A stretch of DNA of 64,000 bases from an uncultured Bacteroidales bacterium (GTDB taxonomy: Bacteria > Bacteroidota > Bacteroidia > Bacteroidales > UBA932), in NCBI GenBank assembly GCA_900545245.1, contig UQYV01000005.1, positions 24,922-88,921 of the forward strand, read 5' to 3'. How positions within the stretch are numbered: position 1 is the first letter of the stretch; every line of letters begins with the position of its first letter. Both the position numbers and the translations under genes were made by a program. The notes under the pieces are model-generated. The model was not told the DNA's origin. It was given only the letters and a program-made list of their open reading frames with translations, and made no database searches. Below are positions 5,028 to 39,359 of the stretch, piece after piece.

Positions 5028-5143
5028 TTATCTCCTTCCGAGCGTTCTAGTCGCTTCAATCCGTAAAGATAGGCTTTTCCCTGACAAATCAATCGAAAAT
5101 AATAATTTTTCTCGTAATCCATTGAAAAATAAAATATTAATCG

Positions 5144-5151
5144 TATATTTG
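5144..5151 (+). promoter_or_regulatory. Bacteroidetes-type -7 promoter box TATATTTG for the rplC operon, with an ATTG -33-like element 19 nt upstream
   Basis: Matches the TAnnTTTG -7 consensus of Bacteroides sigma-A promoters. It is followed by a short hairpin at 5156-5174 (CCGCAAA / TTTGCGG). Confidence 0.4.
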
Positions 5152-5211
5152 CAGCCCGCAAAAATGCTTTGCGGAGGTTAATGTATTTATAATCAATTAA
5201 TTAATCAACCA

Positions 5212-5835
5212 ATGCCTGGATTAATTGGAAAGAAAATCGGAATGACTTCCGTTTTCGGTGCTGATGGAAAAAATCTTCCATGCACCGTTATTGAGGCTGG
5301 TCCATGTGTTGTCACGCAAATTCGTACAGTCGAGAAAGATGGTTATGCCGCTGTACAGCTTGCCTATGACGAAATCTCAGAGAAACATGCCAGCAAGCCT
5401 CTCAAGGGGCACTTTGAAAAGGCAGGAACCACCCCTAGGCGCAAGCTGGTCGAGTTTAAGGCCGACTTCGCTCAGGATCTCAAACTCGGCGACACTCTCA
5501 CGCTGGCTGATGTTTTCGCGAACACCACCTTCGTTGATGTTGTCGGAACGTCCAAGGGTAAGGGATTTCAGGGCGTCGTGAAACGCCACGGCTTCGCAGG
5601 AGTCGGCGGCACTACTCACGGTCAGCACAACCGTCTCCGTCACCCGGGTTCTCTCGGTGCCTGCTCATGGCCTTCCCGCGTATTCCCTGGAATGCGTATG
5701 GCCGGTCATATGGGCGATGAGAGAGTTAAGGTATTCAACCTTCAGGTAATCAAACTTATCCCTGAAAACAACCTCATCGTTGTCAAGGGTTCAGTGCCTG
5801 GAGCAAAGGGTTCTTATGTAATTTTGGAGGACTAA
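5212..5835 (+). CDS. rplC: 50S ribosomal protein L3
   Basis: N-terminus [20 protein letters not shown] and the QLAYDE motif; it is the first gene of a conserved-order block. Confidence 0.97.
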
Positions 5836-5838
5836 GCT

Positions 5839-6468
5839 ATGGAATTATCAGTATTAAAGATTGACGGAACAGAATCCGGAAAGAAGGTAGTCCTCAACGA
5901 CGAAATCTTCGGCATCACTCCGAACGATCACGCGATTTACCTCGACGTGAAACAGTTCCTTGCGAACCAGCGCCACGGCAACGCCAAGACAAAGGATCGC
6001 AGCGAGGTTGCCTACAGTACCAAAAAGCTCATCCGTCAGAAAGGTTCAGGCGGTGCACGTCACGGCAGCTTGAAGGCCAATATCTATGTGGGTGGTGGTC
6101 GTGTATTCGGTCCTAAGCCTCACTTCTACGGCTTCAAGCTCAACAAGAAGCTCAAGCAGCTCGCACGCTTCTCTGCCCTTTCCTACAAGGCTCAGGAGAA
6201 TGCAATCGTTGTTGTCGAGCCGTTCACAATGGACGCGCCAAAGACAAAGGAGTTTATCGGTATCCTTAACAACATCAAGGCCGGTGACAGGAAAGTTCTC
6301 TTCGTTCTTCCTTCAAACTCCGACAACATTTACCTTTCATCACGTAACCTTCCTGAAGTAAATGTCACTACCGTTGACGAAATCAACACTTACGCGATTA
6401 TGAACTCAAATTCACTCGTGCTCGTTGATGGCGTACAGGACATTCTTGCTGCAAGGATCAAACGCTAA
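5839..6468 (+). CDS. rplD: 50S ribosomal protein L4
   Basis: 209 aa in the expected position after rplC; L4-like sequence ([10 protein letters not shown]). Confidence 0.96.
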
Positions 6469-6474
6469 AAAGAG

Positions 6475-6765
6475 ATGGGAATTTTAATTAAGCCAATAGT
6501 AACTGAAAAGATGACGGTTCTGGGCGAAAAGTTGAACCGCTACGGCTTCATCGTTGATCGTGAGGCCAACAAACTTCAGATTAAGGCTGCCGTAGAGCAG
6601 ACCTACAACGTGTCGGTTGCTGATGTCAACACCATCAACTATCACGGCAAGAAGAAATCCCGCTACACCAAGGCCGGTATGCTTCGTGGTCGCATGAACC
6701 ACTACAAGAAGGCTATCGTAACCCTTGCCGGCGAGGACAAGATTGATTTCTACAGCAACATCTAA
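6475..6765 (+). CDS. rplW: 50S ribosomal protein L23
   Basis: 96 aa in the expected position; L23-like. Confidence 0.95.
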   Translation: MGILIKPIVTEKMTVLGEKLNRYGFIVDREANKLQIKAAVEQTYNVSVADVNTINYHGKKKSRYTKAGMLRGRMNHYKKAIVTLAGEDKIDFYSNI

Positions 6766-6780
6766 CAGGAGGGAACGGTT

Positions 6781-7605
6781 ATGGCAGTAAGAAAATTCAA
6801 ACCGGTAACTCCGGGACAGAGAAACAAGGTAATCAGCGCATTTGACGATATTACCTGCAAGAAACCTGAGAAATCACTCCTCGAACCTCTCAAGAGCTCC
6901 GGCGGACGTAACAATCAGGGTAAGATGACCATGCGCTACATTGGCGGCGGTCACAAGAAAATGTACCGTGTAATCGACTTCCTTCGCTCGAAGGACGACT
7001 GCAAGGCTACAGTCATGACAATCGAATATGACCCGAACCGCAGTGCGCGTATCGCGCTCGTGCAGTACGAGGACGGAGTGAAGAAGTACATCATCGCTCC
7101 TAACGGACTCAAGGTCGGTCAGGTCATCGCTTCCGGTTCAGGAATTGCTCCTGAGCTTGGTAACACTCTTCCTCTTGGGGAAATTCCGCTCGGTACACTT
7201 GTTCACAACATCGAGCTTCGTCCTGGACAGGGCGCCGCAATGGCACGTTCTGCCGGAACTTACGCTCAGCTTGCAGCCCGCGAGGGCAACTACGCCATCC
7301 TTCGTCTCCCTTCAGGTGAGACCCGTATGGTGCTTTGCACTTGCCGCGCAACTGTCGGAACAGTGTCAAATCCGGATCACAGTTTGGAGTCGCACGGAAA
7401 GGCGGGACGCAGAAGATGGCTCGGCCGTCGTCCACGCAACCGTGGTGTAGTAATGAACCCTGTAGATCACCCGATGGGTGGTGGTGAAGGTCGTGCATCC
7501 GGTGGACTTCCACGTTCACGCAAGGGTATGCCGGCTAAGGGCTACAAGACACGTAATCCTAAGGCTACTTCAAATAAGTTCATTATTGAAAGAAGGAAAA
7601 AATAA
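6781..7605 (+). CDS. rplB: 50S ribosomal protein L2
   Basis: 274 aa with L2 motifs ([19 protein letters not shown]). Confidence 0.97.
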
Positions 7606-7626
7606 CGGAATAAAACTTAAGAGATT

Positions 7627-7896
7627 ATGAGTCGTTCATTAAGAAAAGGTCCTTATATTCAGGAAGCCCTTGAAAAGAGAATTCTTGCTATGAATGAGGG
7701 TAGCATGAAGAAAGAGGTTGTCAAGACTTGGTCACGTGCAAGTATGATCTCTCCTGATTTCGTCGGTCACACCATCGCAGTTCATAACGGAAATAAGTTT
7801 ATTCCTGTTTATGTCACTGAAAACATGGTCGGACACAAACTCGGGGAGTTCGCGCCTACCAGAACATTCAGAGGCCATTCGGGCAATCGTAAATAA
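7627..7896 (+). CDS. rpsS: 30S ribosomal protein S19
   Basis: 89 aa; [11 protein letters not shown]..., HNGNKFIPV. Confidence 0.97.
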
Positions 7897-7916
7897 TTTT
7901 AAATGAGAAAGTAATT

Positions 7917-8339
7917 ATGGGAGCTCGTAAAAGACAAATGGCCGAGAGGCAGAAAGAAATAAAGAGGCAGACAGCCATCGCGAAGGCAAATGATGTTCCT
8001 ACATCTCCGCGCAAGATGCGTCTCGTTACAGACATAATCCGCGGCGTTGAAGTGAACCGTGCCCTCGATATCCTCAAGTTCAGCAAAAAGCACGCTTCTA
8101 TCACTCTCCAGACTCTCGTACGTAGCGCAATCGCTAACTGGGAGGCTAAAAATCCGGAGAACACGAAGGAACTTGACAACGGTAACGTTTACATCAAGAC
8201 CATTATGGTCGATGAAGGTCGTACACTCAAGAGAATCCGTCCTTGTCCGCAGGGTAGGGCCGGCAGGATCCGCAAGCGTTCCAACCACATTACTGTAATT
8301 CTTGACGTTAAGAAACCATCAACAACAGTGGAGGAATAA
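7917..8339 (+). CDS. rplV: 50S ribosomal protein L22
   Basis: 140 aa in the expected position; L22-like. Confidence 0.95.
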
Positions 8340-8343
8340 GAAT

Positions 8344-9099
8344 ATGGGACAGAAAACAAATCCTATCAGCAACAGAATCGGTATCACCCGTGGTTGGGAC
8401 TCTAACTGGTGTGGTGGTAACTATGCGGAGAAAATCGCTGAGGACTACAAGATTCGCAAATACCTTGAGAATCGTCTTGCAAAGGCAAGCCTCTCAAAGA
8501 TTGTGATTGAGAGAACCCTCAAGCTCATCACCGTGACAATCCACGCGGCAAGACCGGGTGTCATCATCGGAAAGGGCGGTACAGCTGTTGACCAGCTCAA
8601 GGAAGAGCTTAAGAAGGTGACTTCAAAGGATGTTCAGATCAACATCTATGAAGTGAAGAAGCCTGAGGTTGACGCTCACATCGTGGCTGATTCAATCGCA
8701 CGCCAGATCGAGGGCCGTGTTTCCTACCGTCGTGCCATCAAGATGGCCATCGCTTCAACTATGCGTGTCGGAGCGGAGGGTATCAAGATTCAGATCAGCG
8801 GTCGTGTAGGTGGTGCCGAGATGGCAAGAACCGAAATGATAAAGGAAGGTCGTACACCGCTTCACACTTTCCGTGCGGACATTGACTATGCACTTGCTGA
8901 GGCTCACACCAAAGTCGGTGTACTCGGAGTGAAGGTGTGGATCTGCAACGGCGAGGTTTACGGAAAGAAGGATCTTTCTCCTAACGCAGGCATCGCTGCA
9001 CAGCAGGCTCAGAGCGGAAACTCAGGCCGTGGCGGCGAGCGTCGCGGAGGCCGCGGTGGTGATCGTCGTGATCGTCGTGAACGTCGCGAACGTAAGTAA
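8344..9099 (+). CDS. rpsC: 30S ribosomal protein S3, with an Arg/Gly/Asp-rich C-terminal tail
   Basis: [14 protein letters not shown]..., KH and S3-C domains, then a tail [23 protein letters not shown]. The ATG at 8344 is preferred over the ORF-track start at 8302, which overlaps rplV. Confidence 0.95.
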
Positions 9100-9141
9100 T
9101 ACTGGATCGAAGAAAAAGCGAACAGCTATTTCTAATAGTTA

Positions 9142-9172
9142 AAGTCGGCTAAGAAATTGGCCGACTTTTTTG
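9142..9172. terminator. Rho-independent, probably bidirectional terminator after rpsC: AAGTCGGC-loop-GCCGACTT followed by a T6 run
   Basis: Stem-loop plus T-run seen in the sequence. It ends the rplC-rpsC unit and faces the converging uvrC. Confidence 0.5.
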
Positions 9173-9304
9173 GTGCCGTCCAGCTTGGCATATTTCTGTG
9201 CCTCTCCCTTCCTTCGCTCCCGGCCTCGTCTCCTGTTGTCAGGACGCAGGACAGCTTCTCTCTCGTCAGCTCTCCCTGCCACTCTCGCCTGCCTTCGAGC
9301 CTCC

Positions 9305-11107
9305 TCAAGATAAGGCGGATTTGACTTTTGCGGCGAGCGCTTTGCCAACGAGGGCGGCGATGTCCTTCTCCGGAGCAGCGGCGATGCGGGCGACTGAGCC
9401 GAAATGCAGGAGGAGGCGCTGTTCGGTCTTTGGGCCGACTCCTGGGATTTTGCTGAGGGCTGACTCAATCTGGGCCTTGCTGCGGAGTTTGCGGTGGAAG
9501 GTGATGCCGAAGCGGTGGGCCTCGTCGCGAATCTGGCGTAGAACCTTGGAGGCCTGGGAATTCATATCGAGGAAAAGAGGGTAGGGGTCTCCTACGCGGA
9601 TTACCTCCTCCAGTCTTTTTGCGAGACCGATGACCGTCAGCCTGTCAGTGAGGCCAAGCTCGTACAGAGCCTCGTAGGCCGACGAGAGTTGCCCCTTGCC
9701 TCCGTCAATCACGATGAGTTGCGGAAGGTCGTCAGGGGACTCGGTGAGCATTCTCGAATAGCGCCGGTTAACGACTTCCTTCATTGACGCAAAGTCATTT
9801 GCCCCGACCACCGTCTTTATCTTGAAATGCCTATAGTCCTTCTTCGACGGAGCTGCGTCTCTGAACACCGTGCAGGAGGCCACAGGGTTCGTTCCCTGGA
9901 TGTTTGAGTTGTCGAAGCACTCGATGTGGCGCGGCAGCTCCTTCATCCCGAGAGCATCGCGCAGTTCCTCCATCACCTTCATCCTAAAGTTATCCGGGTC
10001 GGTGTGCTCCCTCTGCTTCATCTCGTTGAATCTCATTTCCTTGGCGTTCTTCGCGCTCAGCTCCAGCAGCGCCAGTTTATCGCCGCGCACGGGAATCTTA
10101 AACTCTACACCTTCAATCTCCACGTCCGGCAGAAACGGCACGATGACCTCGTGCGACAACCGTCCGAACTTTGATTCAATCTCTCCGATGAATGTCCCGA
10201 GCACCGTTTCCTGTCCTTCTTCGATGTTCATCTTGAATCCGAGGTTCAGCGATTGCACCACGGCTCCGTCCACCACCCTCATGAAGTTGCCGAAGGCCTC
10301 TCCGGGGTCCATCACGAGCGAGAACACGTCGTAGCTTCCCGGCATGGAACTAAGAATGAGCGACTTGCTGTAGTGTTTGTCGAGCGCCTGCATCTTCACC
10401 TTGTACTCCTGTGCTGCCTCGAAGTCCATCTTTTCTGCCGCCTCGGTCATCAGTTCGCGGTAGTGCGCAATCATTTCCCTTCCTCCGCCGCGGAGCAACT
10501 TCACGACTTCTTCGATGTTGTCGTTGTATTCTTTCTGTGAAATCCCTCCACAGCAGCACCCTCGGCACTTTCCTATGTGGAAATTGAGGCAGGGGCGTGT
10601 CTTTCCACGGAGAATTGACTCTGAGGTGATTTTATTATTGCAGGTGCGGATGGGGTAGATGTCGTGAAAGAGGTCCACAAGCGTCCTTGCGTGCATGGCG
10701 CTTGAATATGGCCCGAAATAGCGCGAACCGTCACGCACGAGCCGTCGCGTGAGAAAAACCTTCGGGAATACATCGTTGCTGACGCATATCCATGGATAGG
10801 TCTTCGAGTCCTTGAGGAGTATGTTGTACTTCGGTTTATATTGCTTTATGAGGTTGTTTTCAAGCAGCAGGGCGTCCGCTTCGGTCTCCACGACAGAATA
10901 CTGGGCATCGGCAATCTTCGAAACCATTATCGCCGTCTTGCGCGTCAGCCTTTCCGGCGGAACGAAATACTGGGCCACCCTCTTGTGCAGGTCCTTCGCC
11001 TTTCCAACATAGATGACGTTGCCATCCGAGTCATAGTAGCGGTAGACGCCCGGCTGGTGCGGGAATAACGCAATCTTCTCTCTGACAGTCAGTTTCTTTT
11101 CCGACAT
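9305..11107 (-). CDS. uvrC: Excinuclease ABC subunit C
   Basis: GIY-YIG N-terminus (PGVYRYYDSDGNVIYVGKAKDLHKRV), UvrBC-interaction region, RNase H-like/endonuclease domain and a C-terminal HhH. The start is taken at MSEKK (11107); the ORF-track start at 11173 is a TTG that would overlap pnuC. Confidence 0.9.
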   Translation of the reverse strand: MSEKKLTVREKIALFPHQPGVYRYYDSDGNVIYVGKAKDLHKRVAQYFVPPERLTRKTAIMVSKIADAQYSVVETEADALLLENNLIKQYKPKYNILLKDSKTYPWICVSNDVFPKVFLTRRLVRDGSRYFGPYSSAMHARTLVDLFHDIYPIRTCNNKITSESILRGKTRPCLNFHIGKCRGCCCGGISQKEYNDNIEEVVKLLRGGGREMIAHYRELMTEAAEKMDFEAAQEYKVKMQALDKHYSKSLILSSMPGSYDVFSLVMDPGEAFGNFMRVVDGAVVQSLNLGFKMNIEEGQETVLGTFIGEIESKFGRLSHEVIVPFLPDVEIEGVEFKIPVRGDKLALLELSAKNAKEMRFNEMKQREHTDPDNFRMKVMEELRDALGMKELPRHIECFDNSNIQGTNPVASCTVFRDAAPSKKDYRHFKIKTVVGANDFASMKEVVNRRYSRMLTESPDDLPQLIVIDGGKGQLSSAYEALYELGLTDRLTVIGLAKRLEEVIRVGDPYPLFLDMNSQASKVLRQIRDEAHRFGITFHRKLRSKAQIESALSKIPGVGPKTEQRLLLHFGSVARIAAAPEKDIAALVGKALAAKVKSALS

Positions 11108-11129
11108 ACACATATTTTGCAAAACATCC

Positions 11130-11831
11130 TTAAACCTTCGCCTCTCCCCGTTCAAGGCGTCTCCAGTTGACAAGCCCGTTCACCGAGTTCATCAGATAGA
11201 AGACATACATTATCAAGGTCGGCACGGAATGTTCAGTTCCCTCGGCCGCGAACACGGACCACATTATGACAGTGAAAACGTTGAATACAATCCACAGCCA
11301 CCACTGCTCCACAAAGGCGAAAGTCATCAGAGCCTGTGCCGCGATGCACAGAACCGTCGTGAACGAGTCAATCCACGGCTGTTCAGCTCCGAAATGCTTC
11401 AGCACAAATGCCAGCGCGACGGTCACGACAGCGATTCCAGCGGCAATCAGCGCCCTCATCTTCCAGGACAACCTCCTCGACTCTACGGCATTTCCCGCCT
11501 CAGTTCCCGTTCCGGCCCCTCTGCGACTCCATTGCCACCACCCTATGAACTGCATCGGAAAATAATAGAGCGCGTTCACTGCCGCATTTCCATAAGCCGT
11601 TGATTTCCAAGCTATATAGGCATAGAGTGAGACCTGCACAATCCCGAAGGCATAGTTCCAGATGCTTCCCTTTGCCGCGAGCACGACGCAGAGTATTCCT
11701 GCCACCGCTGCCGTGAATCCGAGGACATCGAAGCCTGACGATGCCGTGGCTATCGAATATATTACGTTACATGCGACAACTCCTGAAATCAGGAACCAAT
11801 CGAATGCTCCGAGTATATTTTTCTCTTTCAT
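11130..11831 (-). CDS. pnuC: Nicotinamide riboside transporter PnuC
   Basis: 233 aa multi-TM protein with PnuC-like W-rich motifs (FPMQFIGWWQW, EQWWLWIVFN). Confidence 0.8.
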   Translation of the reverse strand: MKEKNILGAFDWFLISGVVACNVIYSIATASSGFDVLGFTAAVAGILCVVLAAKGSIWNYAFGIVQVSLYAYIAWKSTAYGNAAVNALYYFPMQFIGWWQWSRRGAGTGTEAGNAVESRRLSWKMRALIAAGIAVVTVALAFVLKHFGAEQPWIDSFTTVLCIAAQALMTFAFVEQWWLWIVFNVFTVIMWSVFAAEGTEHSVPTLIMYVFYLMNSVNGLVNWRRLERGEAKV

Positions 11832-11934
11832 ATCTATTGTTTATGTCATACCGTTCGTGTAGGACGAACTCATTCCGCGCAAAGTTATATTATATCCCAC
11901 CATTCTGCAAATTTCCTTTTTTAATTTTTTTTCA

Positions 11935-11942
11935 TAACTTTG
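11935..11942 (+). promoter_or_regulatory. -7 promoter box TAACTTTG for acpP. The identical box on the opposite strand at 11880-11887 would serve the divergent pnuC.
   Basis: Both are TAnnTTTG matches in a 193-bp divergent intergenic region. Confidence 0.35.
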
Positions 11943-11954
11943 CCCCGATATTTC

Positions 11955-11994
11955 GATTAGAGTAATCGTAGGTGTTTTGATTAGAGTAATCGTA
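11955..11994. promoter_or_regulatory. Two tandem copies of the 16-bp imperfect palindrome GATTAGAGTAATCGTA, 24 bp apart; candidate operator at the predicted acpP transcription start
   Basis: Exact direct repeat at 11955-11970 and 11979-11994. Each copy has palindromic arms GATTA...TAATC. Confidence 0.35.
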
Positions 11995-12024
11995 AAAACA
12001 AATATAAACTAAAAAGATTCAATT

Positions 12025-12276
12025 ATGTCTACAATTGCAGAAGAAGTAAAGGCAATCATCGTTGACAAGCTCGGCGTTGAACCGTCAGAGGTTACCGATA
12101 GCGCAAACTTCACAAACGATCTCGGCGCAGATTCACTTGATAGCGTCGATCTTATCATGGCTCTTGAGCACAAGTTCGATCTTGAACCGGACGACGAAGC
12201 AGAAGGCAAGATTGTTACCGTTGCCGACGCAATCGCTTACGTTGAGAAGAAAGTCGCTGAAAAGCAGGCTAAATAA
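12025..12276 (+). CDS. acpP: Acyl carrier protein
   Basis: 83 aa with the DLGADSLD phosphopantetheine-attachment motif. Confidence 0.93.
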
Positions 12277-12295
12277 CAAACCTGAAAGTGAAAAA

Positions 12296-12328
12296 GGGTT
12301 GATTCCGCTTGGAGTCAACCCTTTTTTT
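12296..12328. terminator. Bidirectional rho-independent terminator: GGGTTGATTCC-gctt-GGAGTCAACCC followed by T7
   Basis: Seen in the sequence; it lies between the converging acpP and the 12327-12812 gene. Confidence 0.55.
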
Positions 12329-12812: not shown

Positions 12813-12813
12813 A

Positions 12814-13236: not shown

Positions 13237-13241
13237 AAGAA

Positions 13242-14009: not shown

Positions 14010-14049
14010 AAAGTTGGTTTTTAAAATTTGGTTTATAACATACATACTT

Positions 14050-16649: not shown

Positions 16650-16707
16650 AGCAAGTTTTATTTTAACAAATCTCCACAAAGATAATAATAAATTTTCATA
16701 AAATCAC

Positions 16708-16715
16708 TAACTTTG
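16708..16715 (+). promoter_or_regulatory. -7 promoter box TAACTTTG upstream of ftsX
   Basis: TAnnTTTG match about 50 bp upstream of the ftsX start. Confidence 0.3.
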
Positions 16716-16767
16716 GCGTCTGCATGTTGTGATAGCGGGGTTTAATGCTACTGTGTAATAATAAGTT

Positions 16768-17646: not shown

Positions 17647-17647
17647 G

Positions 17648-17896: not shown

Positions 17897-17898
17897 GA

Positions 17899-26739: not shown

Positions 26740-26750
26740 TCTGTAACATA

Positions 26751-27761: not shown

Positions 27762-27771
27762 TGCGGAGGAT

Positions 27772-29835: not shown

Positions 29836-29865
29836 AAAAATCATTTAATAAATTTAGTTAACTTT

Positions 29866-31380
29866 ATGAACCACAAATTTTTAACAATCGCAATGGCGTT
29901 CGCGGCTGTGGCTGCGGCCTCTTGCAACAAGGACAATCAGCCGGCAGGACCGGAGACCATTTCAGGCGACTTCTCGGTGAAGGCAACCATAACTGACGCT
30001 TCATGGGCGGAGAACGCCTCTATCGCGCTTTACCACTCGGCAGGCGACGCGCTCGTTTCAGACGGCGAGTTCAAGCTTTCCGGCGACGTGTTCAAGGGAA
30101 GCCTCGCCGAGGCAGTCGAGGACGGCAAGGAGTACGAGTGGATTGCCGTAAGTCCCTATGCCACGGGTGCTGAACTTTCGGCATATCCCGTTGAACTCGA
30201 CGGGACGACCGCTCCTCTTTTCGGAAAGGTGACGGCCGCTGCTTCAAAGACAGCCGCTCCTGAAATCGCTATGACTTCTCTTGCGGCTTTCGCGAAGGTT
30301 AATGTCAAGAATTCGACTACGGCTGCGATTGAAGTCTCATCTGCGTCTATCACTGCTCCTGAGTCAGAGAAAATCGCAGGAAAGTTCACGGTTGACCTTA
30401 CGGCTGCGGCGCCTGCGCTCAAGGCTGTGGAGGCTTCCAATGTCGCGGCATATACCGGGAATGTTGAAGTCAAGGCCGGTGAAACTGCCGAGATTGTATT
30501 TGCTGTCGCACCGGTGACTTTCGCCGCCGGAACTGAGCTTACGCTCAAGGTCGGTGAGAACGAGCACAAAGTCGCTCTTGAGGCCGAAACTGTCCTTGCC
30601 GCCGGCAAAGTGACTGAACTCGCGACAGTTGAGGAAAAACCTGTCGAGGTTTATCTCTGCGGTGACGCATTCGTCTGCGGATGGGATTTCTCCGATGAGT
30701 GCAGGCTCACTCCGAGCGAGTCCAATCCGAAGATTCTCAGCTGGACCGGCGATGTGGCCGGAAACAAGCAGTTCTTCGCTTCATTCGTAAAGTCTTGGGA
30801 CGGCACTTTCATAACTCCGGAAATCACAGGCCAGGAGAATGAGGACGCATATTATATCGTCAAGACGGAAATGGAAGGAAACCTCGTCTTTGACAGAACG
30901 GCGGAGACCAAGAAGCATTGGAAATTCGAGGTCGGCGGAAACTACACATTCACAGTAAACCTCGAAACGAACACATTCTCCATAAAGATGAACTCATGTG
31001 CCGCATACGAGGCAATTCCAGCTCCGTCAAAGGCCTCTCTCCGCGGCGAGGCGTCAGGCTCTTGGGACGAGCACGAAGGCTACATCATGACGCAGTCTTC
31101 CACGGACGCGAATGTGTTCACATGGGAAGGCAATCTTGTCACAGGAAAGGGCGGCGACGGCAAATTGTTCGCGCTTTGCGTGGTCTGCACGGGCTCTGAC
31201 GGCGACCACTGGTGCCAGACATTCGGCGAGGTCGGTCAGGCATTCGTTCCGGAGACCGGTTCACTTTCCGGCTACCTCTACAGCAAGACCGGAGGAGATG
31301 TGTTCCGCATTCAGAAGGACGGTACCTACAGCATCGTCTTCAACGCCGCGACGCGGCAGATAAGCATCACTGCGAAATAG
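29866..31380 (+). CDS. SusE/SusF-like surface glycan-binding lipoprotein (putative)
   Basis: Lipoprotein signal (AAASC), an Ala-rich beta-sandwich-like N-region and a C-terminal region with aromatic carbohydrate-binding-like features. Confidence 0.4.
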   Translation: MNHKFLTIAMAFAAVAAASCNKDNQPAGPETISGDFSVKATITDASWAENASIALYHSAGDALVSDGEFKLSGDVFKGSLAEAVEDGKEYEWIAVSPYATGAELSAYPVELDGTTAPLFGKVTAAASKTAAPEIAMTSLAAFAKVNVKNSTTAAIEVSSASITAPESEKIAGKFTVDLTAAAPALKAVEASNVAAYTGNVEVKAGETAEIVFAVAPVTFAAGTELTLKVGENEHKVALEAETVLAAGKVTELATVEEKPVEVYLCGDAFVCGWDFSDECRLTPSESNPKILSWTGDVAGNKQFFASFVKSWDGTFITPEITGQENEDAYYIVKTEMEGNLVFDRTAETKKHWKFEVGGNYTFTVNLETNTFSIKMNSCAAYEAIPAPSKASLRGEASGSWDEHEGYIMTQSSTDANVFTWEGNLVTGKGGDGKLFALCVVCTGSDGDHWCQTFGEVGQAFVPETGSLSGYLYSKTGGDVFRIQKDGTYSIVFNAATRQISITAK

Positions 31381-31398
31381 TTTAACGTTTATTCAGAA

Positions 31399-31441
31399 GG
31401 CCGGTGTCGCGGGTGTGAAACTCCGCTGCACCGGTCTTTTT
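31399..31441 (+). terminator. Imperfect GC-rich hairpin followed by a T5 run; an intra-PUL terminator or attenuator
   Basis: GGCCGGTGTCGCGG...CCGCTGCACCGGTC then TTTTT. Because of it, the upstream alternative start at 31415 for the next gene is unlikely. Confidence 0.35.
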
Positions 31442-31459
31442 GAAATTTCTTATTCTGTT

Positions 31460-32509
31460 ATGTGTAAATTTTTCGGCCGATTTTCGCTCTCCGCTTTTAT
31501 CGGAGTTCTATTATTCCCGCTGTCCGTAGGATGTTCGTCAGCACATGATGCTCCGGCGGCGGAAGAAACTCCTGTTTCCTACAATGTGCTCTGCCTCGGA
31601 AATTCCATCACTCGTCACGAGTATGCCGCGAGCGTCGAGTGGTACTCCGACTGGGGTATGGCCGCCTCAAAACCAGAGAATGACTACTGTCATGTGCTGG
31701 AATCGCTTCTTAACGGGAAATATCCCGGCTCGACCGTGACCCCTCTTAACATCGCCGCATGGGAGCGCAGTCTTTCCGATGACATCGACGGCTTCATCGG
31801 GGAATATGTCAGGGATAGGGACATAATTGTTGTCCGTCTCGGTGAAAATGTCACCGCCGAGCGGGCCTTTGCGCCTGCTCTTCAGAAACTTGTCAGTTAT
31901 TGCGTGGCTCATGCGAAGTATGTCCTTATCACCGGAACTTTCTGGAAATCGGAGATTAAGGAGGCGGCAATCGTTGAGACCGCCCGTCTCTACGACATTC
32001 CGTATTACCCGATTTCGCAGCTCGATGTTCCCGAAAACCACCCGAAGGTAGGGGACACGTTTCAGGACATAAATGGCGGGACATATCAGATTTCAAAGGA
32101 TTTCATCATCACGCACCCGAACGACAAGGGAATGCATGAGATTGCTGAAATCATTTACGTCGGCATAGAAGAACTCGTCGGCGGCAGAATCGGCGCGAGG
32201 GACATTGCGACGCGCAGGCATATTTCCGAAAAGATGCCGATGTCAACCCGCACGCGCACGGTGGATTCCCTGCCTCATCTCGGTCTTCCGTCTCCGTTCA
32301 GCGTACCGCAGGCCCAGGGCACTACATTCATGGATTTGTTTTATTGGGACACATATTTCACGAACCTCGGACTTCTGAGCCTCGGGGACATTCAGCAGGC
32401 GAAGAACAATGTCGATGATATTCTCTATCTTATTGATAAATATGGGTATATGCCCAATGCCGCGAACACGGGACTTCTGAACCGCCTCAGCCGCCTTATG
32501 CGAGTATGA
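31460..32509 (+). CDS. N-terminal fragment of a secreted SGNH/GDSL-hydrolase-like domain fused to a GH37 trehalase, interrupted by a frameshift
   Basis: Lipoprotein signal, a GDSL-type motif (LCLGNSITRH), then trehalase signature 1 (GTTFMDLFYWDTYF) and PNAANTGLLNR. The frame ends LSRLMRV* where a trehalase would continue NRSQPP. Confidence 0.6.
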   Translation: MCKFFGRFSLSAFIGVLLFPLSVGCSSAHDAPAAEETPVSYNVLCLGNSITRHEYAASVEWYSDWGMAASKPENDYCHVLESLLNGKYPGSTVTPLNIAAWERSLSDDIDGFIGEYVRDRDIIVVRLGENVTAERAFAPALQKLVSYCVAHAKYVLITGTFWKSEIKEAAIVETARLYDIPYYPISQLDVPENHPKVGDTFQDINGGTYQISKDFIITHPNDKGMHEIAEIIYVGIEELVGGRIGARDIATRRHISEKMPMSTRTRTVDSLPHLGLPSPFSVPQAQGTTFMDLFYWDTYFTNLGLLSLGDIQQAKNNVDDILYLIDKYGYMPNAANTGLLNRLSRLMRV

Positions 32510-33432
32510 TGGTGCGCGACGTCTATGAACGGACGGACGACAGGGGGTGGCTGCGCGGTGCTGTGGAGACTCTGAAGAAGGAATATGACTTCTGGATGAC
32601 GGAACGCGTCACTCCGAGCGGGCTGAACCGGCACTTCAACAGCGCGACGAGGACGGAACTGCTTGAATTTTACGGCTATCTCTGTTCCGAGCGTTTCCCG
32701 GAGATGGATGTTCCGCGGTCTGACGACGAGAAGGTGCGGATTGCCTCGAACTTCCTTTCTGAGGCGGAGACCGGCTGGGACTTCACACCGCGCTTCGGGG
32801 GCTGCGAGGAGGACTGCAATCCGGTGGATCTGAATGCAAACCTCTATGTCTATGAGAAGAATTTCGCGTGGTTTTGCAGGGAATTGGGGCTGAAAGGCGC
32901 GAAGGCATGGGAAAAGAAGGCGGAGAAGCGTCGCAGGCTGATTCAGAAATACTGCTTTGAGCCGGGCGACGGACTCTTTTACGACTACAACTACGTCACC
33001 GGACGGCGCAGCGACATCTTCAGCTCTGCCGTCTTCAATCTTCTCTGGGCGGGCATTCCGACAGAGGAGCAGGCCGCGTCTCTCGTGAAGAACCTCGGAA
33101 GGCTGGAATGTGCCAACGGGGTTGCCGCGTGCGAGGACGGTGAGCGCAATGCCGTCTATCAGTGGGACTATCCCAATGCCTGGGCGAGTTTCAACACTCT
33201 GGCGGTCGTCGGGCTTGATAAATATGGCTATAAGGCTGATGCCGCGAGACTTGCGGAGAAATATCTCAACTCAGTAAGTTCCATATATGGCAAGACCGGA
33301 CAGCTATGGGAAAAGTACAACGCCGTCACCGGAGACACCGACGTCAGGGATGAATACGCCATGCCCGGCGACTTCATGGGCTGGACCGCCGGCGCTTTCC
33401 TCGTCTGCTTCGACTATCTGTCAAAAAACTAA
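32506..33432 (+). CDS. C-terminal fragment of the GH37 trehalase. Its frame is open from about 32464 and reads ...EPPQPPYASMMVRD there.
   Basis: Trehalase signature 2 (QWDYPNAWA) and ETGWDFTPRF. A −1 frameshift near 32481-32490 separates it from the upstream fragment. Confidence 0.6.
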   Translation: MMVRDVYERTDDRGWLRGAVETLKKEYDFWMTERVTPSGLNRHFNSATRTELLEFYGYLCSERFPEMDVPRSDDEKVRIASNFLSEAETGWDFTPRFGGCEEDCNPVDLNANLYVYEKNFAWFCRELGLKGAKAWEKKAEKRRRLIQKYCFEPGDGLFYDYNYVTGRRSDIFSSAVFNLLWAGIPTEEQAASLVKNLGRLECANGVAACEDGERNAVYQWDYPNAWASFNTLAVVGLDKYGYKADAARLAEKYLNSVSSIYGKTGQLWEKYNAVTGDTDVRDEYAMPGDFMGWTAGAFLVCFDYLSKN

Positions 33433-33475
33433 AATCTTAAATCAAATAGTGCCGTTCTTTGCGGAATTATATTCC

Positions 33476-33483
33476 TACATTTG
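33476..33483 (+). promoter_or_regulatory. Internal -7 promoter box TACATTTG upstream of the GH78-like gene
   Basis: TAnnTTTG match 38 bp upstream of the ATG at 33521. Confidence 0.25.
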
Positions 33484-33520
33484 TAATGATTAGACATCTG
33501 ATTCAACACTAAAGTTCTCT

Positions 33521-35287
33521 ATGACAAAATTCCAAACATTTCTTGTCACGATAACCATTCTGCTCTGCGGAATAGGAATCCTTGACGCGCAGGAGCGCGA
33601 CGTGCGCGTCAGAACCTACATCTCGCCGGCCCGTGTTGTCTGGCAGAGCGGTGAGGGCGTGCAGCTTGCCGACGTGCTTCTGAAAGAGGGCAACGGGCAG
33701 CCCTACTGCAACAACGACACTCCGACATCCTACTGCATCCTCTCTTCGGAGAACGGTGCCGCCCCCGGAGTGCTGCTCGACTACGGGAAGGAACTGCACG
33801 GCGGGCTTCAGATTGTGACGGGGTGGTTCCCGGGCGGTCCGGTCAAGGTTCGTGTCCGCTACGGAGAGTCGGCGTCCGAGGCCATGTCCGATGTCGGCGG
33901 CAAGGGTGGGGCGACGAACGACCACGCCATGCGCGACCAGACAGTCTCGCTTCCGATGATGGGCGCGGTGGAAATCGGCAATTCCGGCTACCGTTTCGTG
34001 CGGATTGACCTCGCCGAGCCGGACAGGACAGTGAAGCTCAAGGAGGTGCGGGCAATCTCCATAATGCGTGACCTTGAATATGCCGGCTCGTTCCGTTGCA
34101 GCGATGAGCGTCTGAACCGTATCTGGGAGACAGGAGCCTACACCGTGCATCTTTGCATGCAGAACTTCCTCATCGAGGGCATAAAGCGTGACCGTCTCGT
34201 GTGGATGGGCGATTCCTACCCGGAGGTGATGACTGTGGCGACGGTATTCGGCGGCAACGAGGTCGTCCCCAAGACCCTCGACTGGATGCGCGACGTGACC
34301 CCTCTGCCGAATTGGATGAACGGCGAGTTCTCCTCCTATTCAATCTGGTGGATGCTCTGCCATCAGGCGTGGTTCCGTCACACCGGGAACAGGGAATATC
34401 TTCTTGAGTCGAAGGGATATATCTCCGGACTTCTCCGTCAGCTCATCGGATGCATAGGCCCGGACGGCCGCGAACGTCTCGACGGAATGCGCTTCCTCGA
34501 CTGGCCTTCGCAGGAGAATGAACTGGCCAAGAATGCCGGACTTCAGGCCCTGATGGTGTGGGCCATGCAGGCAGGGCAGGAATTTGCCGGAATCTTCGAC
34601 GATGCCGCGCTTGCAGCCGAGTGCGCGGATGCGGAGAGACGGCTGTCGAAGGCCGCTCCGAAAATCTATAAGGAGTTTCTTAAGTCAGGTGTCGCTCCCG
34701 ACGCTCCCGGCTCTAAGCAGGCGGCGGCTCTTATGACCCTTGCCGGGGTGACGGACGCGAGGAAGGCCGACCGCGACATCCTGAACTTTAACGGCGGGCA
34801 CGGCTTCTCCACATTCTACGGCTATCTGATGCTTGAGGCGATGGCCCGGGCGGAGGACTGGCAGGGCGCTCTCGACATCATCCGCAGCTACTGGGGCGCG
34901 ATGCTCGACCTCGGGGCGACGACGTTCTGGGAGGATTTCAACCTCGACTGGCTTCCGAACGCCGCCGGCATTGACAATCTTGTGCCGGAGGGTATGAAGG
35001 ACATCCACGGCGATTTCGGTGCCTACTGCTATGTCGGATTCCGTCACAGCCTCTGCCACGGCTGGGCATCCGGCCCGACAGCGTGGCTCAGCCATCATGT
35101 CCTCGGAGTGGAGATTCTTGAACCGGGGTGTTCAAAGGTCCGCATAACCCCGCATCTCGGCGACCTCGAATGGGCGGAAGGCACGTTCCCGACACCGCAC
35201 GGCTCCATTCACGTTCGTCACGAAAAACAGGCCGACGGCAGCATACATACGGATGTCACTGTTCCGGAAGGAGTGGAACTGAGGTGA
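33521..35287 (+). CDS. Six-hairpin glycoside hydrolase, alpha-L-rhamnosidase (GH78)-like
   Basis: Signal peptide; the KRDRLVWMGD motif resembles the GH78 catalytic (alpha/alpha)6 motif RERLGWTGD, and a C-terminal CHGWASGP is present. It is shorter than typical GH78 enzymes. Confidence 0.45.
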   Translation: MTKFQTFLVTITILLCGIGILDAQERDVRVRTYISPARVVWQSGEGVQLADVLLKEGNGQPYCNNDTPTSYCILSSENGAAPGVLLDYGKELHGGLQIVTGWFPGGPVKVRVRYGESASEAMSDVGGKGGATNDHAMRDQTVSLPMMGAVEIGNSGYRFVRIDLAEPDRTVKLKEVRAISIMRDLEYAGSFRCSDERLNRIWETGAYTVHLCMQNFLIEGIKRDRLVWMGDSYPEVMTVATVFGGNEVVPKTLDWMRDVTPLPNWMNGEFSSYSIWWMLCHQAWFRHTGNREYLLESKGYISGLLRQLIGCIGPDGRERLDGMRFLDWPSQENELAKNAGLQALMVWAMQAGQEFAGIFDDAALAAECADAERRLSKAAPKIYKEFLKSGVAPDAPGSKQAAALMTLAGVTDARKADRDILNFNGGHGFSTFYGYLMLEAMARAEDWQGALDIIRSYWGAMLDLGATTFWEDFNLDWLPNAAGIDNLVPEGMKDIHGDFGAYCYVGFRHSLCHGWASGPTAWLSHHVLGVEILEPGCSKVRITPHLGDLEWAEGTFPTPHGSIHVRHEKQADGSIHTDVTVPEGVELR

Positions 35288-35380
35288 GCATATCCTTGGA
35301 AACCTGTCTTTGAAAATAAGGGACAAATTCTGAAGCAGTTTATTTTTTTATGATTCTAAATCAATTTGTTACGAAATATC

Positions 35381-37312
35381 ATGGCACATAAATATATCCT
35401 TTTTCTGATGAGTCTTTCCGCGCTGGGTTTCGGATGCGGAGTGTGTTTCGCGGGGAACGGCAGAATGTCGAAGAATGCCGGGAATATGGAAGTGAAATCC
35501 GTGAAGGTCGGCGGATATGTCGGCGTGAGGATTGACGACTGTTTCCGTCATCGAGTGATGGAGCAGGATGTCGATGAGATTGTCGAGCCGTTCCGTCACA
35601 GGGTCGAAAGCTGGAAATGGAACAGCGAATTCTGGGGAAAATGGACGCTCGGTGCAATAGGCGCATATCGCTATACGGGAGATTCCGCACTTTACGACAA
35701 AATCGCGAAATCGGTCGATGACATCATCGCGACGCAGACTCCTGACGGCTACATCGGGAACTATGCCCCGGAATTTCAGACGAAAAAATGGGATATATGG
35801 GGACGGAAATACACGATGCTCGGACTCCTGAGCTGGTATGAACTCACGGGCGACCGCAGGGCACTTGAGGCGGCTGCAGGTGTTGCAGACCACCTTCTTT
35901 CACAGATTGGGCCGGGCAAGGCCGACATTGTTTTGACTGGAGACTACCGCGGAATGCCGAGCTCGACGGTGCTTGAGCCAATCATGAGTCTCTACAACAA
36001 GACCGGCGAACGGCGCTATCTTGACTTCGCGTCATACATCGTCGCGCAGTGGGAAACTCCGGAAGGCCCGCAGCTCATCAGCAGGGCCGACGTCCCGGTT
36101 GCCATGCGTTTCCCGCATCCGGACAGCTGGTTCTCATACGAGAACGGTCAGAAGGCCTACGAGATGATGTCCTGTTACGAGGGGCTGCTTGAGTATTATA
36201 AGGTTACGGAAAACAAGGCCGACTATGACGCCGTCCTGAAGACGTATTCGCACATCCTCGCGGAGGAAATCAATGTCGCCGGTTCGGGGAGTGCGGTCGA
36301 GTGCTGGTACGGCGGCAGGGCTCTCCAGACAGTCCCGACCTATCACACGATGGAGACCTGCGTGAGCTTCACGTGGATGCAGTTCTGCAGCCGGCTTCTC
36401 GCGCTGACGGGAGACTCGCGCTATGCCGACAACATCGAGCGCACTTTCTACAACGCCATTCTCGGCGCGCTGAAGGACGACGGCTGCCAGATTGCCAAAT
36501 ACACCCCGCTTGAGGGCTGGCGCGTCGAGGGCGAGAGGCAGTGCGGACTGAACATCAACTGCTGCAACGCCAACGGCCCGCGTGCATTTGCCATGATTCC
36601 CGCCCTTGCCTACCGCGCCGACGGAGACTGCCTCACGGTCAATTTCTACGGTGAATCCGAGGCTGATGTCCGTCTTGGCAAGCGCAGCTCGCTTAGGGTT
36701 GTTCAGACCGGCGGCTATCCCGTGTCTGGCGACGTTGCCGTTGAACTGTCTCCGTCAAAGCCCGCAGACTTCACGGTCGCCCTGCGCATTCCTGAATGGA
36801 GCCGCAACGCGAAGGCACGGATAATCAGCGGCACCGATACGCTCGCTGTCAGTCTCGGCTCGCTCGCCGCTGGAGAGTATGCAAGGATTTCCCGCAGATG
36901 GAAGGCCGGTGACAGGGTGGAGCTTTCCCTTGACATGACGGCCCGCGTCGTGGAGCGGAACGGCTGCCAGGCCATTGTCCGCGGCCCGCTCGTGCTTGCG
37001 AGGGATTCCCGTTTCAATGACGGTTTCGTGGATGAGGGTGTCGTGATTCAGACCGCCTCCGACGGCTCTGTTGAACTTACCCCGGTCGTAGGCGACGGCT
37101 TCGCGTGGATGGCGTTCACCGCTCCGATGGTTGTCGGCACCGACCTCGAAAACAACGGGAAGCCGCGTCAGGTTCACCTCTGCGACTTCGCCTCCGCCGG
37201 CAACACCTGGGACAAGTCCGTGCGCTACCGCGTCTGGCTTCCTAAGACCCTCAATGTCATGCGCGGCGAGTACCGGGCATACAACGACGGACCCGCAGAC
37301 TCGGCTCTCTAA
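35381..37312 (+). CDS. GH127/GH146-family (DUF1680) beta-L-arabinofuranosidase-like glycoside hydrolase
   Basis: Signal peptide. A Cys cluster (NCCNANGPRAF) resembles the Zn-binding Cys site of GH127, and ETCVSFTWMQF...GDSRYADNIERTFYNA resembles the GH127 core. Confidence 0.55.
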   Translation: MAHKYILFLMSLSALGFGCGVCFAGNGRMSKNAGNMEVKSVKVGGYVGVRIDDCFRHRVMEQDVDEIVEPFRHRVESWKWNSEFWGKWTLGAIGAYRYTGDSALYDKIAKSVDDIIATQTPDGYIGNYAPEFQTKKWDIWGRKYTMLGLLSWYELTGDRRALEAAAGVADHLLSQIGPGKADIVLTGDYRGMPSSTVLEPIMSLYNKTGERRYLDFASYIVAQWETPEGPQLISRADVPVAMRFPHPDSWFSYENGQKAYEMMSCYEGLLEYYKVTENKADYDAVLKTYSHILAEEINVAGSGSAVECWYGGRALQTVPTYHTMETCVSFTWMQFCSRLLALTGDSRYADNIERTFYNAILGALKDDGCQIAKYTPLEGWRVEGERQCGLNINCCNANGPRAFAMIPALAYRADGDCLTVNFYGESEADVRLGKRSSLRVVQTGGYPVSGDVAVELSPSKPADFTVALRIPEWSRNAKARIISGTDTLAVSLGSLAAGEYARISRRWKAGDRVELSLDMTARVVERNGCQAIVRGPLVLARDSRFNDGFVDEGVVIQTASDGSVELTPVVGDGFAWMAFTAPMVVGTDLENNGKPRQVHLCDFASAGNTWDKSVRYRVWLPKTLNVMRGEYRAYNDGPADSAL

Positions 37313-37368
37313 CCATTGCCCGTGCCATAGTCATCGCGCGGGCGACCGGGGCTGCTGTCCTTCGCCTC

Positions 37369-38067
37369 CTACTCCTCCGCCGGCTTCCAGTTCCTGTACT
37401 TCTCCGGAATCTCGACTACCGGCGGGTCTTTCCAGAACAGCGACCAGTAGAGCATCGGAAAGTCGCCGTCCTTCCACAACTGGACAAGTTCCTCCACCTG
37501 CGCGTCCTCGCCCTTCGGGTCGTAGGGCTTTTTCATGTCCTCATCGAACATCTTTGCCACACCCTGCCAGAATCCTGCGGTGATTCCGCCCTTGTAGCCG
37601 CGTATCAGCTCGTATGACGTTTGCCCGCTCTCGCGGTCTATCAGCTTCATGATCAACATCCCTTGGCTTACGGTGAGATTTCTCATCTGCTTTTCGAACA
37701 CGCCGAACAGCTCCTTCTGGAGATGGTTGATGTAGCGCTCCTTCTTCAGCCCCGTAAGATGGTCGGCCGCAATCACGCTGTCTGTCTCCTGAACCATCCT
37801 CTTCGCCACGAGCGCATAGGGGTAAGCCTTGCTGAAATTGTGTACGAGCCGGTAGTATTTCCTCCATTCTTTACCCTTCTGCTTGGGCATCTTCTGGAAC
37901 ACGCGGGCCGGCCTGATGCTGTCGTAATAGACGGTGTCCCCGTTTTCTACGGAATATTCCAGCCATCCTCCCGGCTTCGTTGGCCTGCTTTGCGCATTCG
38001 ACCTCACGGCATCCGCACCCCATAATGCGAGGATGACGAGAACCGATATGAGCCGGAGGCGTTTCAT
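37369..38067 (-). CDS. Secreted hypothetical protein, tentatively labelled DUF4294-like
   Basis: 232 aa with a signal peptide; about 230 aa is what I recall for this Bacteroidetes-specific family. Confidence 0.5.
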   Translation of the reverse strand: MKRLRLISVLVILALWGADAVRSNAQSRPTKPGGWLEYSVENGDTVYYDSIRPARVFQKMPKQKGKEWRKYYRLVHNFSKAYPYALVAKRMVQETDSVIAADHLTGLKKERYINHLQKELFGVFEKQMRNLTVSQGMLIMKLIDRESGQTSYELIRGYKGGITAGFWQGVAKMFDEDMKKPYDPKGEDAQVEELVQLWKDGDFPMLYWSLFWKDPPVVEIPEKYRNWKPAEE

Positions 38068-38351
38068 GAGGTATATATAATATGTATTCTATTTTATATT
38101 GCGGAGTTCCCGCACAGCCTGCAAAAATAATCATTTCCTTCGTCATGTCGTCAACCGGATTGCAAAATGTGTGGCGAAATGTCTCGTGCCATCTGTTTGG
38201 TGGCATCGTTTTCCGTGTGGTCGAAAACGGATGAATATATTTTTTATCAATCTGTGTAATACTCTGAAAATGGAAAAGTTAATATGCAAAAAATGCGGTC
38301 AAAAAAGTTTGAATTTTTTGCAGAAAAAGTTGTCGTTTCGATATTTTTTCG

Positions 38352-38359
38352 TATCTTTG
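38352..38359 (+). promoter_or_regulatory. -7 promoter box TATCTTTG for rplP and the downstream ribosomal genes
   Basis: The context cgTATCTTTGCAGt nearly matches the rplC promoter cgTATATTTGCAGc; it lies 96 bp upstream of rplP. Confidence 0.4.
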
Positions 38360-38454
38360 CAGTCCCAAAATTGAGGGGTAGTATGCCCAACTGTCTATCT
38401 TTCAATAATTTAAGGGAAAGGTTGAATAATTTATAATTCAAAAGTAATAAGACA

Positions 38455-39357: not shown

Positions 39358-39359
39358 CA

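Follow-up and report, generated by a model that had tools for sequence, protein, structure and literature searches.

The str-S10-spc-alpha supercluster of ribosomal-protein genes has one of the most conserved gene orders among bacteria. In archaea, and in cyanobacteria and plastids, the S10 gene is a companion of the str genes (S12-S7-EF), and a separate operon starts with the L3 gene. A reconstruction by Brandis for Gammaproteobacteria and Bacilli counts 115 rearrangements of this cluster, of which 65% lie between operons and none separates spc from alpha (PMC8046335). The rearrangements known from that work and from a 2019 study (PMC6735719) are lineage-specific multigene insertions that are inherited within clades and leave spc and alpha joined. 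The same features are found in the locus described here, a 64,000-nucleotide (nt) stretch of DNA (the window) from an uncultured Bacteroidales bacterium of the UBA932 lineage (GenBank assembly GCA_900545245.1, contig UQYV01000005.1, positions 24,922 to 88,921 of the forward strand). In this window the supercluster is divided into a rplC-rpsC block and a distant rplP-rplQ block, and rpsJ is missing. The arrangement very probably represents an ancient, lineage-wide fragmentation of the supercluster into three operons, to which a recent polysaccharide utilization locus (PUL) has been added in this strain. Each fragment in the window keeps the genes, internal order and orientation of the canonical supercluster, from which the window differs by breaks at rpsJ/rplC and rpsC/rplP, the latter inside the E. 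coli S10 operon. Whereas the known rearrangements fall mostly between operons, one of these breaks lies within the S10-operon gene set, in another phylum and with a Bacteroidota-specific promoter. No paper describing a rpsC/rplP break with a conserved housekeeping insert was found in a literature search. Such a break is unusual, yet it is a variation on a known type of event, and the split reveals no new kind of biological system.

The first fragment consists of seven plus-strand genes at 5212-9099, namely rplC (5212-5835), rplD (5839-6468), rplW (6475-6765), rplB (6781-7605), rpsS (7627-7896), rplV (7917-8339) and rpsC (8344-9099), each with an NCBIfam equivalog match, and the same block is found in the comparison loci L001-L010 and L021-L100. 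The second fragment, also on the plus strand (38455-49051), extends from rplP (38455-38874) to rplQ (48548-49051), both NCBIfam equivalog matches, in the order rplP-rpmC-rpsQ-rplN-rplX-rplE-rpsN-rpsH-rplF-rplR-rpsE-rpmD-rplO-secY-map-infA-rpmJ-rpsM-rpsK-rpsD-rpoA-rplQ. Its small genes were located by comparing gene order with the genes called in L011-L020; together with the NCBIfam matches they form an uninterrupted run, and the spc-alpha part is intact. In a contiguous S10 operon, rpsJ comes first, directly 5' of rplC. Here, the left neighbor of rplC is instead a gene for a SusR-family PUL regulator on the minus strand (3309-5027; NCBIfam SusR_regulator, E 1.5e-135), beyond which lies a SusC gene, likewise on the minus strand. 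A tblastn search finds no S10 gene in the whole 64-kb window, in agreement with the absence of rpsJ upstream of rplC that the initial annotation had reported. Nor does rpsC continue into rplP-rpmC-rpsQ: between the end of rpsC (9099) and the start of rplP (38455) lie a terminator and the converging uvrC gene. The gene identities, the coordinates and the split claimed at the outset are thus confirmed.

The split is not confined to this genome. A scan with RpsC, covering one genome per GTDB species, had at least 574 matches; the window proteins were mapped onto the best 80 loci, in which RpsC is 76-98% identical. There is no rpsJ upstream of rplC in 47 of the 48 loci with sequence at that place and no rplP after rpsC in 74 of 75. 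The sole exception is the most distant locus (L097, 76%), in which the order rpsL-rpsG-fusA-rpsJ-rplC to rpsC-rplP to secY is fully canonical. Among more than 20 contigs of close relatives (RplC identity above 95%), rpsC is never directly followed by rplP. The initial annotation had treated the split as a novelty of this genome and had named a synteny comparison with relatives as the check that could overturn this view; the comparison finds the split throughout the clade. Since both breaks are common to nearly all informative clade loci, the split is a lineage trait and not a novelty, and its distribution suggests an old inheritance in the UBA932/Cryptobacteroides family. The named members of the clade are Candidatus (Ca.) Cryptobacteroides and Ca. 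Coprenecus, which correspond to GTDB RC9 and CAG-831, respectively, and both belong to family UBA932 (Gilroy et al., PMC8035907). Canonical outgroups comprise L097, L101-L106, L114-L117, L198/L199 (the closest by FusA) and L206-L209 (labelled 'Rikenellaceae bacterium'). Protein identities to the window leave a clear gap between the split clade, with no less than 77% for RplC and 73.5% for RplD, and the nearest canonical genomes, where RplC reaches 73% and RplD 59% at most. In a metagenome scan with S10, rplC directly follows rpsJ in 73 of 80 loci, six end just after rpsJ, and a single one (L175, discussed below) differs. Several loci that carry the clade's ribosomal block (L040, L053, L077, L096, L099 and L021) are labelled Bulleidia, Anaerovoracaceae, Lachnospiraceae, Eggerthellaceae, Ca. 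Egerieisoma or Muribaculaceae; these Firmicutes, Actinobacteria and Muribaculaceae labels likely reflect binning contamination or mislabelling.

A chimeric contig, joined at 5028-5211, 9100-9304 and 38068-38454, could mimic such a split, and metagenome-type sequence invites this suspicion, as contigs often break at conserved ribosomal genes and the sequence of many GTDB loci begins inside the ribosomal block. Exact-protein look-ups of RplC, RplP and PnuC, however, recover numerous contigs, 50-670 kb in length, from unrelated studies of the human gut. The susR/rplC junction recurs in L002, L004, L007, L008 and L009, the DUF4294/rplP junction in all ten RplP places shown (L011-L020), and the rpsC/uvrC junction in L107, L108 and seven similar places, which also preserve the whole order from susR/rplC through rpsC/uvrC-pnuC to lpxH/PUL. 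One of these supporting contigs, L107, shows 100% identity with the window along 12.8 kb; it may come from the same source and is then not independent. The other contigs are not identical. Each junction thus recurs in assemblies of different studies and samples, both breaks are found in dozens of species with diverged sequences, and the junctions carry a conserved promoter, leader and terminator. Misassembly at the junctions, a concern raised in the initial annotation, is not borne out, each junction being present in several other assemblies, and an artefact of assembly or binning has next to no probability.

The gap between rpsC and rplP measures 29.35 kb and, judging by alignment with relatives, is composite: about 10 kb of ancient, family-conserved housekeeping genes and a recent PUL of 17.8 kb. 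The housekeeping block (9305-19577, mixed strands) was read by family scans. It begins with uvrC (9305 to about 11107, minus strand), which converges on the rpsC terminator, and pnuC (minus strand, after uvrC within 9305-11831), followed by acpP (12025-12276, plus strand), four genes without family matches and a GT5-like gene (all minus strand), and then ftsX, a DUF3098 gene, uppP and a lpxH-like gene on the plus strand. Downstream of rpsC, uvrC is found in 45 species, and GT5-like, ftsX, uppP, lpxH and DUF4294 genes are seen in progressively fewer loci. The usual family order is rpsC, then uvrC-pnuC through ftsX-uppP-lpxH-DUF4294, then rplP, with a gap of about 10 kb; in L089, the entire stretch from rpsC-uvrC-pnuC through GT5-like-ftsX-uppP-lpxH to the minus-strand DUF4294 gene and rplP fits within 9.5 kb. 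The DUF4294 gene of the window (37369-38067, minus strand; Pfam DUF4294, E 3e-45) is the divergent neighbor of rplP, which it also adjoins in L011-L020 and L089, and in 16 species loci it stands next to lpxH. It is in this lpxH/DUF4294 spacer that the PUL lies (19544-37368, plus strand). The PUL comprises genes for a TIG/NHL protein, SusC (21490-24624), a SusD-like protein (24643-26739), DUF4973, GH97, a SusE/F-like protein, a frameshifted trehalase-like protein, a rhamnosidase-like protein and GH127, and so contains the adjacent SusC/SusD pair and the glycoside hydrolases by which such loci are recognized. Its boundaries were set by aligning the window with L018 and L020, strains that have an identical RplP and no PUL.

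Among strains with identical RplP, this PUL is present, absent or variant: L018 and L020 have 34 nt at the site, L013, L016 and L019 have two small genes instead, and L011, L012, L014, L015 and L017 have related or rearranged PULs. The variability of the 17.8 kb, placed exactly within an intergenic spacer, and the other PULs that other strains bear at rpsC/uvrC and upstream of rplC, would suit a recent, single insertion of about 29 kb of foreign or mobile DNA that split the cluster in this genome or species only. Such an event is nevertheless highly unlikely, because the PUL-less strains L018 and L020 keep the rpsC/rplP break with the 10-kb housekeeping block, the break is common to the whole family, and the missing rpsJ would be left unexplained. 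The marks of a mobile element are likewise lacking: family scans detect no integrase, transposase or recombinase among the open reading frames (ORFs), no tRNA is found in the window, and the PUL boundaries at 19543/37369 show no target duplication and no visible recombinase. This accords with two points of the initial annotation, namely that the intervening DNA holds no integrase, transposase or tRNA and that the split looks like a chromosomal rearrangement rather than a mobile-element insertion. Its description of a gap of about 29 kb was right in size and gene content, although not in taking as one unit what consists of an ancient block and a strain-variable PUL.

The place of rpsJ emerged from a chance sight of rpsL-rpsG-fusA in L025, followed by a search with the S7 protein of this locus. 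L025 is a clade member, with an RpsC 91% identical to that of the window, in which rpsL-rpsG-fusA shares the strand of rpsC and follows it at a distance of 8 kb. Its S7 relatives (L201, L202-L205) have rpsL-rpsG-fusA-rpsJ and then unrelated genes. In L201, whose RpsL, RpsG and FusA are 100%, 96% and 91% identical to those of L025 and which has the same GC content of 50%, rpsJ is followed by a Fib_succ_major gene, a C69 peptidase gene and a SusC gene; in L202-L205 and more than 20 similar contigs, AhpC, HD and HAD genes follow. In the clade, rpsJ has thus been kept as the last gene of the str operon, detached from rplC. Locating rpsJ and fusA elsewhere in the genome, one of the checks named in the initial annotation, was achieved in these relatives, and for the window's own species the same place is indicated indirectly. 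As in archaea and cyanobacteria, rpsJ stands at the end of rpsL-rpsG-fusA and rplC first in a separate unit, although the archaeal and cyanobacterial arrangement lacks the extra rpsC/rplP break seen in the clade. An independent origin inside Bacteroidales is indicated because the nearest relatives are canonical. Directly after rpsJ in the clade genomes stand another -7 box and hairpin (12933-13110 in L202-L204, 12966-13040 in L201), and in L202-L204 a tRNA-like sequence with a CAT anticodon, read by eye, comes after them. A new predicted promoter has therefore taken over the place where rpsJ once adjoined rplC.

Two homology searches with S10 itself led to canonical loci. The top 120 matches of a homology search from canonical L097 were all at least 89% identical, S10 being too conserved, and the contexts P0115, P0078 and P0103 were all canonical; a second search, from L175, gave canonical Rikenellaceae-like loci in contexts P0161, P0158 and P0136. 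The human gut contig UEQL01002642 (L175) carries a partial rpoC followed by rpsL-rpsG-fusA-rpsJ-gcvP, without rplC. It is a low-coverage mosaic and was not used as evidence. Compared with L198/L199, its FusA and S10 are 95-100% identical, its RpsL 78% and its RpsG 49%, and its GC content is 62%; either the contig is a chimera of low coverage, or rpsJ was detached here a second time, independently.

Housekeeping promoters of Bacteroidota follow the consensus -33 TTTG / -7 TAnnTTTG, in which TAnnTTTG stands about 19-21 nt downstream of TTG/TTTG. A predicted promoter of this type precedes the rplC unit at 5122-5151 (plus strand), with the -33 element TTG at 5122-5124, a 19-nt spacer and the -7 box TATATTTG at 5144-5151. 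The -7 box and the TTGAAAAT region are kept upstream of rplC in about 45 species. Species share no related DNA upstream of rplC except for the last 90 nt or so ahead of the start codon, which are nearly identical and contain, in conserved order, TTG(A)AAAT, a 19-nt spacer, TAnnTTTG, CAG, a hairpin with a GC-rich stem and an A-rich loop, the AT-rich leader that includes CAATTAATTAA, and ATG. The 5'-proximal stem-loop of the leader (5156-5174, plus strand; CCGCAAA / AATGC / TTTGCGG) is predicted in 37 of 37 species, with stems that differ (CCGC/GCGG, CCCAC/GTGGG, CCCC/GGGG, CCGCC/GGTGG), and the AT-rich leader (5175-5211, plus strand) contains a near-invariant CAATTAATTAA box at 5194-5204, just before the rplC start codon. 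A covariance model (R1) built from 16 rplC leaders makes exactly one match per clade locus, always at rplC, and none in outgroups or at rpsL. In the resulting alignment of 52 leaders, 86.5% of cells are paired versus 75% in shuffles, and 26 cells are changed on both sides versus 9.2. The covariation score is reached by none of 500 shuffles, changes on both sides occur in four of the six pairs, and sliding the partner by 1-3 columns lowers pairing to 34-64%. The hairpin at 5156-5174 is thus a conserved structure of the 5' untranslated region with covariation, in an alignment fitted to the model. The same design of promoter and 5' hairpin precedes rpsL in the clade, with weaker versions in outgroups.

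In the window, no Rfam family matches at gathering thresholds, and the best hit of a permissive scan is S15-Flavobacteria, at 17.6 bits versus a cut-off of 46.5 (E 5.4). The E. coli S10 leader, which mediates attenuation and translational control by L4, is likewise a conserved structured 5' leader before a unit that encodes L4. The clade leader differs in that it precedes rplC rather than rpsJ, forms a single short hairpin without an attenuator-like terminator, and has no Rfam match. The E. coli L4 leader element is confined to Gammaproteobacteria (PMC3616713), and this element is no model for the membership of the clade hairpin. The hairpin may act, by prediction, through mRNA stabilization or protein binding. 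A bolder and rather doubtful proposal is that the rplC unit gained a new, clade-specific regulatory leader after the break, formed by the covarying stem-loop and the CAATTAATTAA box and confined to rplC in UBA932-type genomes. It would be either a site for one of the ribosomal proteins that the unit encodes, with L4 as the obvious candidate, or a dedicated mRNA-stability element. If true, this would be a newly evolved feedback device that restores the stoichiometric control lost by fragmentation.

At its other end, the rplC-rpsC unit is closed by a predicted intrinsic terminator (9141-9171, plus strand), with a 12-bp stem formed by 9141-9152 and 9157-9168, a GAAA loop and a T6 run ending at 9171. 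The hairpin lies 42 nt after the rpsC stop codon, is strong by direct folding, and combines the GC-containing stem-loop and 3' U tract typical of such terminators, in line with the earlier report of a hairpin and T6 facing the converging uvrC. Of 47 loci scanned, 45 have a hairpin with a T-run in the first 200 nt past rpsC; the 47 include three near-identical strains and canonical L097, where the only match is weak (dG -8.6, 71 nt downstream). The stem sequences are unrelated between loci, and their difference argues for selection on termination itself. A sigma-70-type scan is uninformative for Bacteroidota, and its terminator scan missed the rpsC terminator, probably because of the way it delimits stem and loop.

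The second unit, from rplP to rplQ, has a predicted promoter of its own at 38330-38359 (plus strand), with a -33 TTG at 38330-38332, a 19-nt spacer and the -7 box TATCTTTG at 38352-38359. It is followed by a short CCC/GGG hairpin and a leader of about 90 nt, and this layout recurs in L011-L020 and in the diverged L089. Because the upstream DUF4294 gene is divergent, a promoter is necessary within the 387-nt spacer. The same spacer contains an inverted repeat, CGTTTTC...GAAAACG, with a GTCGAAAA motif (38207-38229). The repeat is conserved, with L089, L044, L064 and L065 having it too, and its distance to rplP, which it precedes, is about 130-230 nt; some spacers contain it twice. It may be bound by a regulator or belong to the promoter as an upstream element.

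The nearly identical promoter cores of the two units had been singled out in the initial annotation. The strings do stand where they were reported, although their likeness is not special, as the window has five copies of the extended motif TAnnTTTGCAG where 0.28 would be expected, most of them shortly ahead of a gene: before rplC, the first PUL gene (19663), DUF4294 (38129, minus strand) and rplP, and also at 62279 (minus strand). This motif is the general strong-promoter consensus of the organism. The possibility that the two ribosomal promoters are duplicates of each other was rejected, as the motif is general and covariance model R1 matches only rplC leaders.

Whether the two units are autonomous depends on how these signals are read. 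They might be transcribed by read-through from upstream genes, the supposed promoters being chance consensus matches, and the shorter TAnnTTTG is indeed frequent enough (37 in the window versus 22 expected) for single matches to be weak evidence. Read-through cannot supply the units, however, because the genes just upstream of both, susR and DUF4294, are on the opposite strand. Moreover, the -7 box, hairpin and leader are kept at rplC in about 45 species despite differing flanks, a strong terminator follows rpsC in nearly all loci scanned, and the excess of TAnnTTTGCAG near gene starts is far above expectation. A lack of autonomy is accordingly most improbable, and the earlier suggestion that each half is its own transcription unit fits the opposite-strand upstream genes, the conserved promoter and leader, and the terminator after rpsC, from which independent transcription may be predicted.

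Taken together, gene order and conserved signals very probably reflect the following course of events. In the common ancestor of the UBA932/Cryptobacteroides (RC9) lineage, the series rpsL-rpsG-fusA-rpsJ-rplC to rpsC-rplP to rplQ was broken at two points. The first break lies in the rpsJ-rplC spacer and left rpsJ at the end of a rpsL-rpsG-fusA-rpsJ operon that is now elsewhere in the genome. The 3' part of the rplC leader (TATTTATAAACAAT and the following nucleotides) is similar to the spacer between rpsJ and rplC in L198/L199/L200, the nearest relatives with canonical order, which places the breakpoint within that spacer and makes the promoter and hairpin the added part. The second break, rpsC/rplP, is now occupied by about 10 kb of housekeeping genes (uvrC, pnuC, acpP, envelope genes, ftsX, uppP, the lpxH-like gene and DUF4294). 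The outcome is three operons, rpsL-rpsG-fusA-rpsJ, rplC-rpsC and rplP-rplQ, the latter two in the window; each of the three has its own predicted promoter and 5' hairpin, and rplC-rpsC has its own terminator. Transcription of rplC-rpsC would start from the Bacteroidota-type promoter, yield an mRNA beginning with the stem-loop and AT-rich leader, and end at the intrinsic terminator, and rplP-rplQ would be expressed from its own promoter within the spacer shared with the divergent DUF4294. To this older layout, the present strain adds the recent 17.8-kb PUL between lpxH and DUF4294, which widens the gap to 29 kb.

By another route, the rplC-rpsC block itself may have moved, through duplication-loss or paired inversions, to a position some 10 kb in front of rplP. 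Models of duplication and loss have been considered for clusters of this kind (PMC8046335), species differ in what lies to the left of rplC, and the placement of rpsL-rpsG-fusA near rpsC in L025 indicates that the units shift relative to each other. This course is possible, if somewhat unlikely, because rplC-rpsC retains its orientation and its nearness to rplP in most species, as simple insertion predicts. In L025 (18579-20678), P-type ATPase and AAA-ATPase genes stand between rpsC and rpsL-rpsG-fusA, without a uvrC block, so that the order of the three ribosomal units has changed once more within the family. Whether by insertion or by translocation, we infer a fragmentation that preceded the diversification of the loci sharing it.

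Several points weigh against the fragmentation as reconstructed here. The position of rpsJ in the window's own species is inferred from relatives. Sequence and conservation are what the use of the promoters and the points of transcription start and end are predicted from. Because the leader alignment was fitted to the structure, its pair counts are inflated, and the fold of the rplP leader is not more stable than shuffled sequence (z = -1.2), its promoter and leader having been compared in close strains and one diverged relative (L089) only. The boundary of the clade is approximate, the loci inspected being the best 80 of at least 574 RpsC matches. Finally, uvrC-pnuC is on the minus strand in the window versus the plus strand in 42 of 45 relatives, in the order uvrC then pnuC in both, so that a two-gene inversion alone does not account for its orientation; the PnuC of the window is only about 30-56% identical to that of relatives (L022-L090).

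In so conserved a gene order, a family-wide three-way split is useful in several respects. It is a rare-genomic-change marker that sets the UBA932/RC9 gut group apart from its Rikenellaceae-like relatives. It also amounts to a natural experiment in balanced ribosomal-protein synthesis without co-transcription, with re-evolved promoter, leader and terminator modules. Some phylogenomic and binning methods expect 16 syntenic ribosomal proteins on one scaffold, and methods that rely on a single block will systematically recover only partial ribosomal sets from this family, which is abundant in gut and rumen.

Accessory carbohydrate-utilization DNA has hot spots in the spacers next to the ribosomal units. 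Those at 5028-5211, 9172-9304 and 19544-37368 are strain-variable sites for PULs or small accessory genes (L001-L020, L107-L109), and no recombinase or target duplication is visible at the three sites among strains with identical RplC or RplP. Other strains have a GH20-GH109-SusC/D PUL between rpsC and uvrC (L001-L010, linked to uvrC by L109). The left neighbor of rplC varies as well, with a SusR gene in L002, L004, L007, L008 and L009 and other neighbors in L001 and in L003, L005, L006 and L010. Within the PUL of the window, a single-base deletion relative to L014, around 32486, splits the trehalase-like glycoside hydrolase gene (31415-33432) into two ORFs (31415-32509 and 32506-33432). The gene is whole (651-661 aa) in L011-L017, and its split form in the window is either a pseudogene or a consensus error.

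Downstream of the ribosomal genes, an identical 16-mer, GCGCAAACGATTGTGC, stands right after -7 boxes at 50308-50323 and 62398-62413, 12 kb apart, against a chance expectation of 0.03. The first site lies beside a LacI-family regulator gene (49151-50164, minus strand) and a ribokinase gene (50382-51284), and the two sites bracket a downstream SusC-containing gene cluster. The two copies are probably operator sites of the LacI-family regulator.

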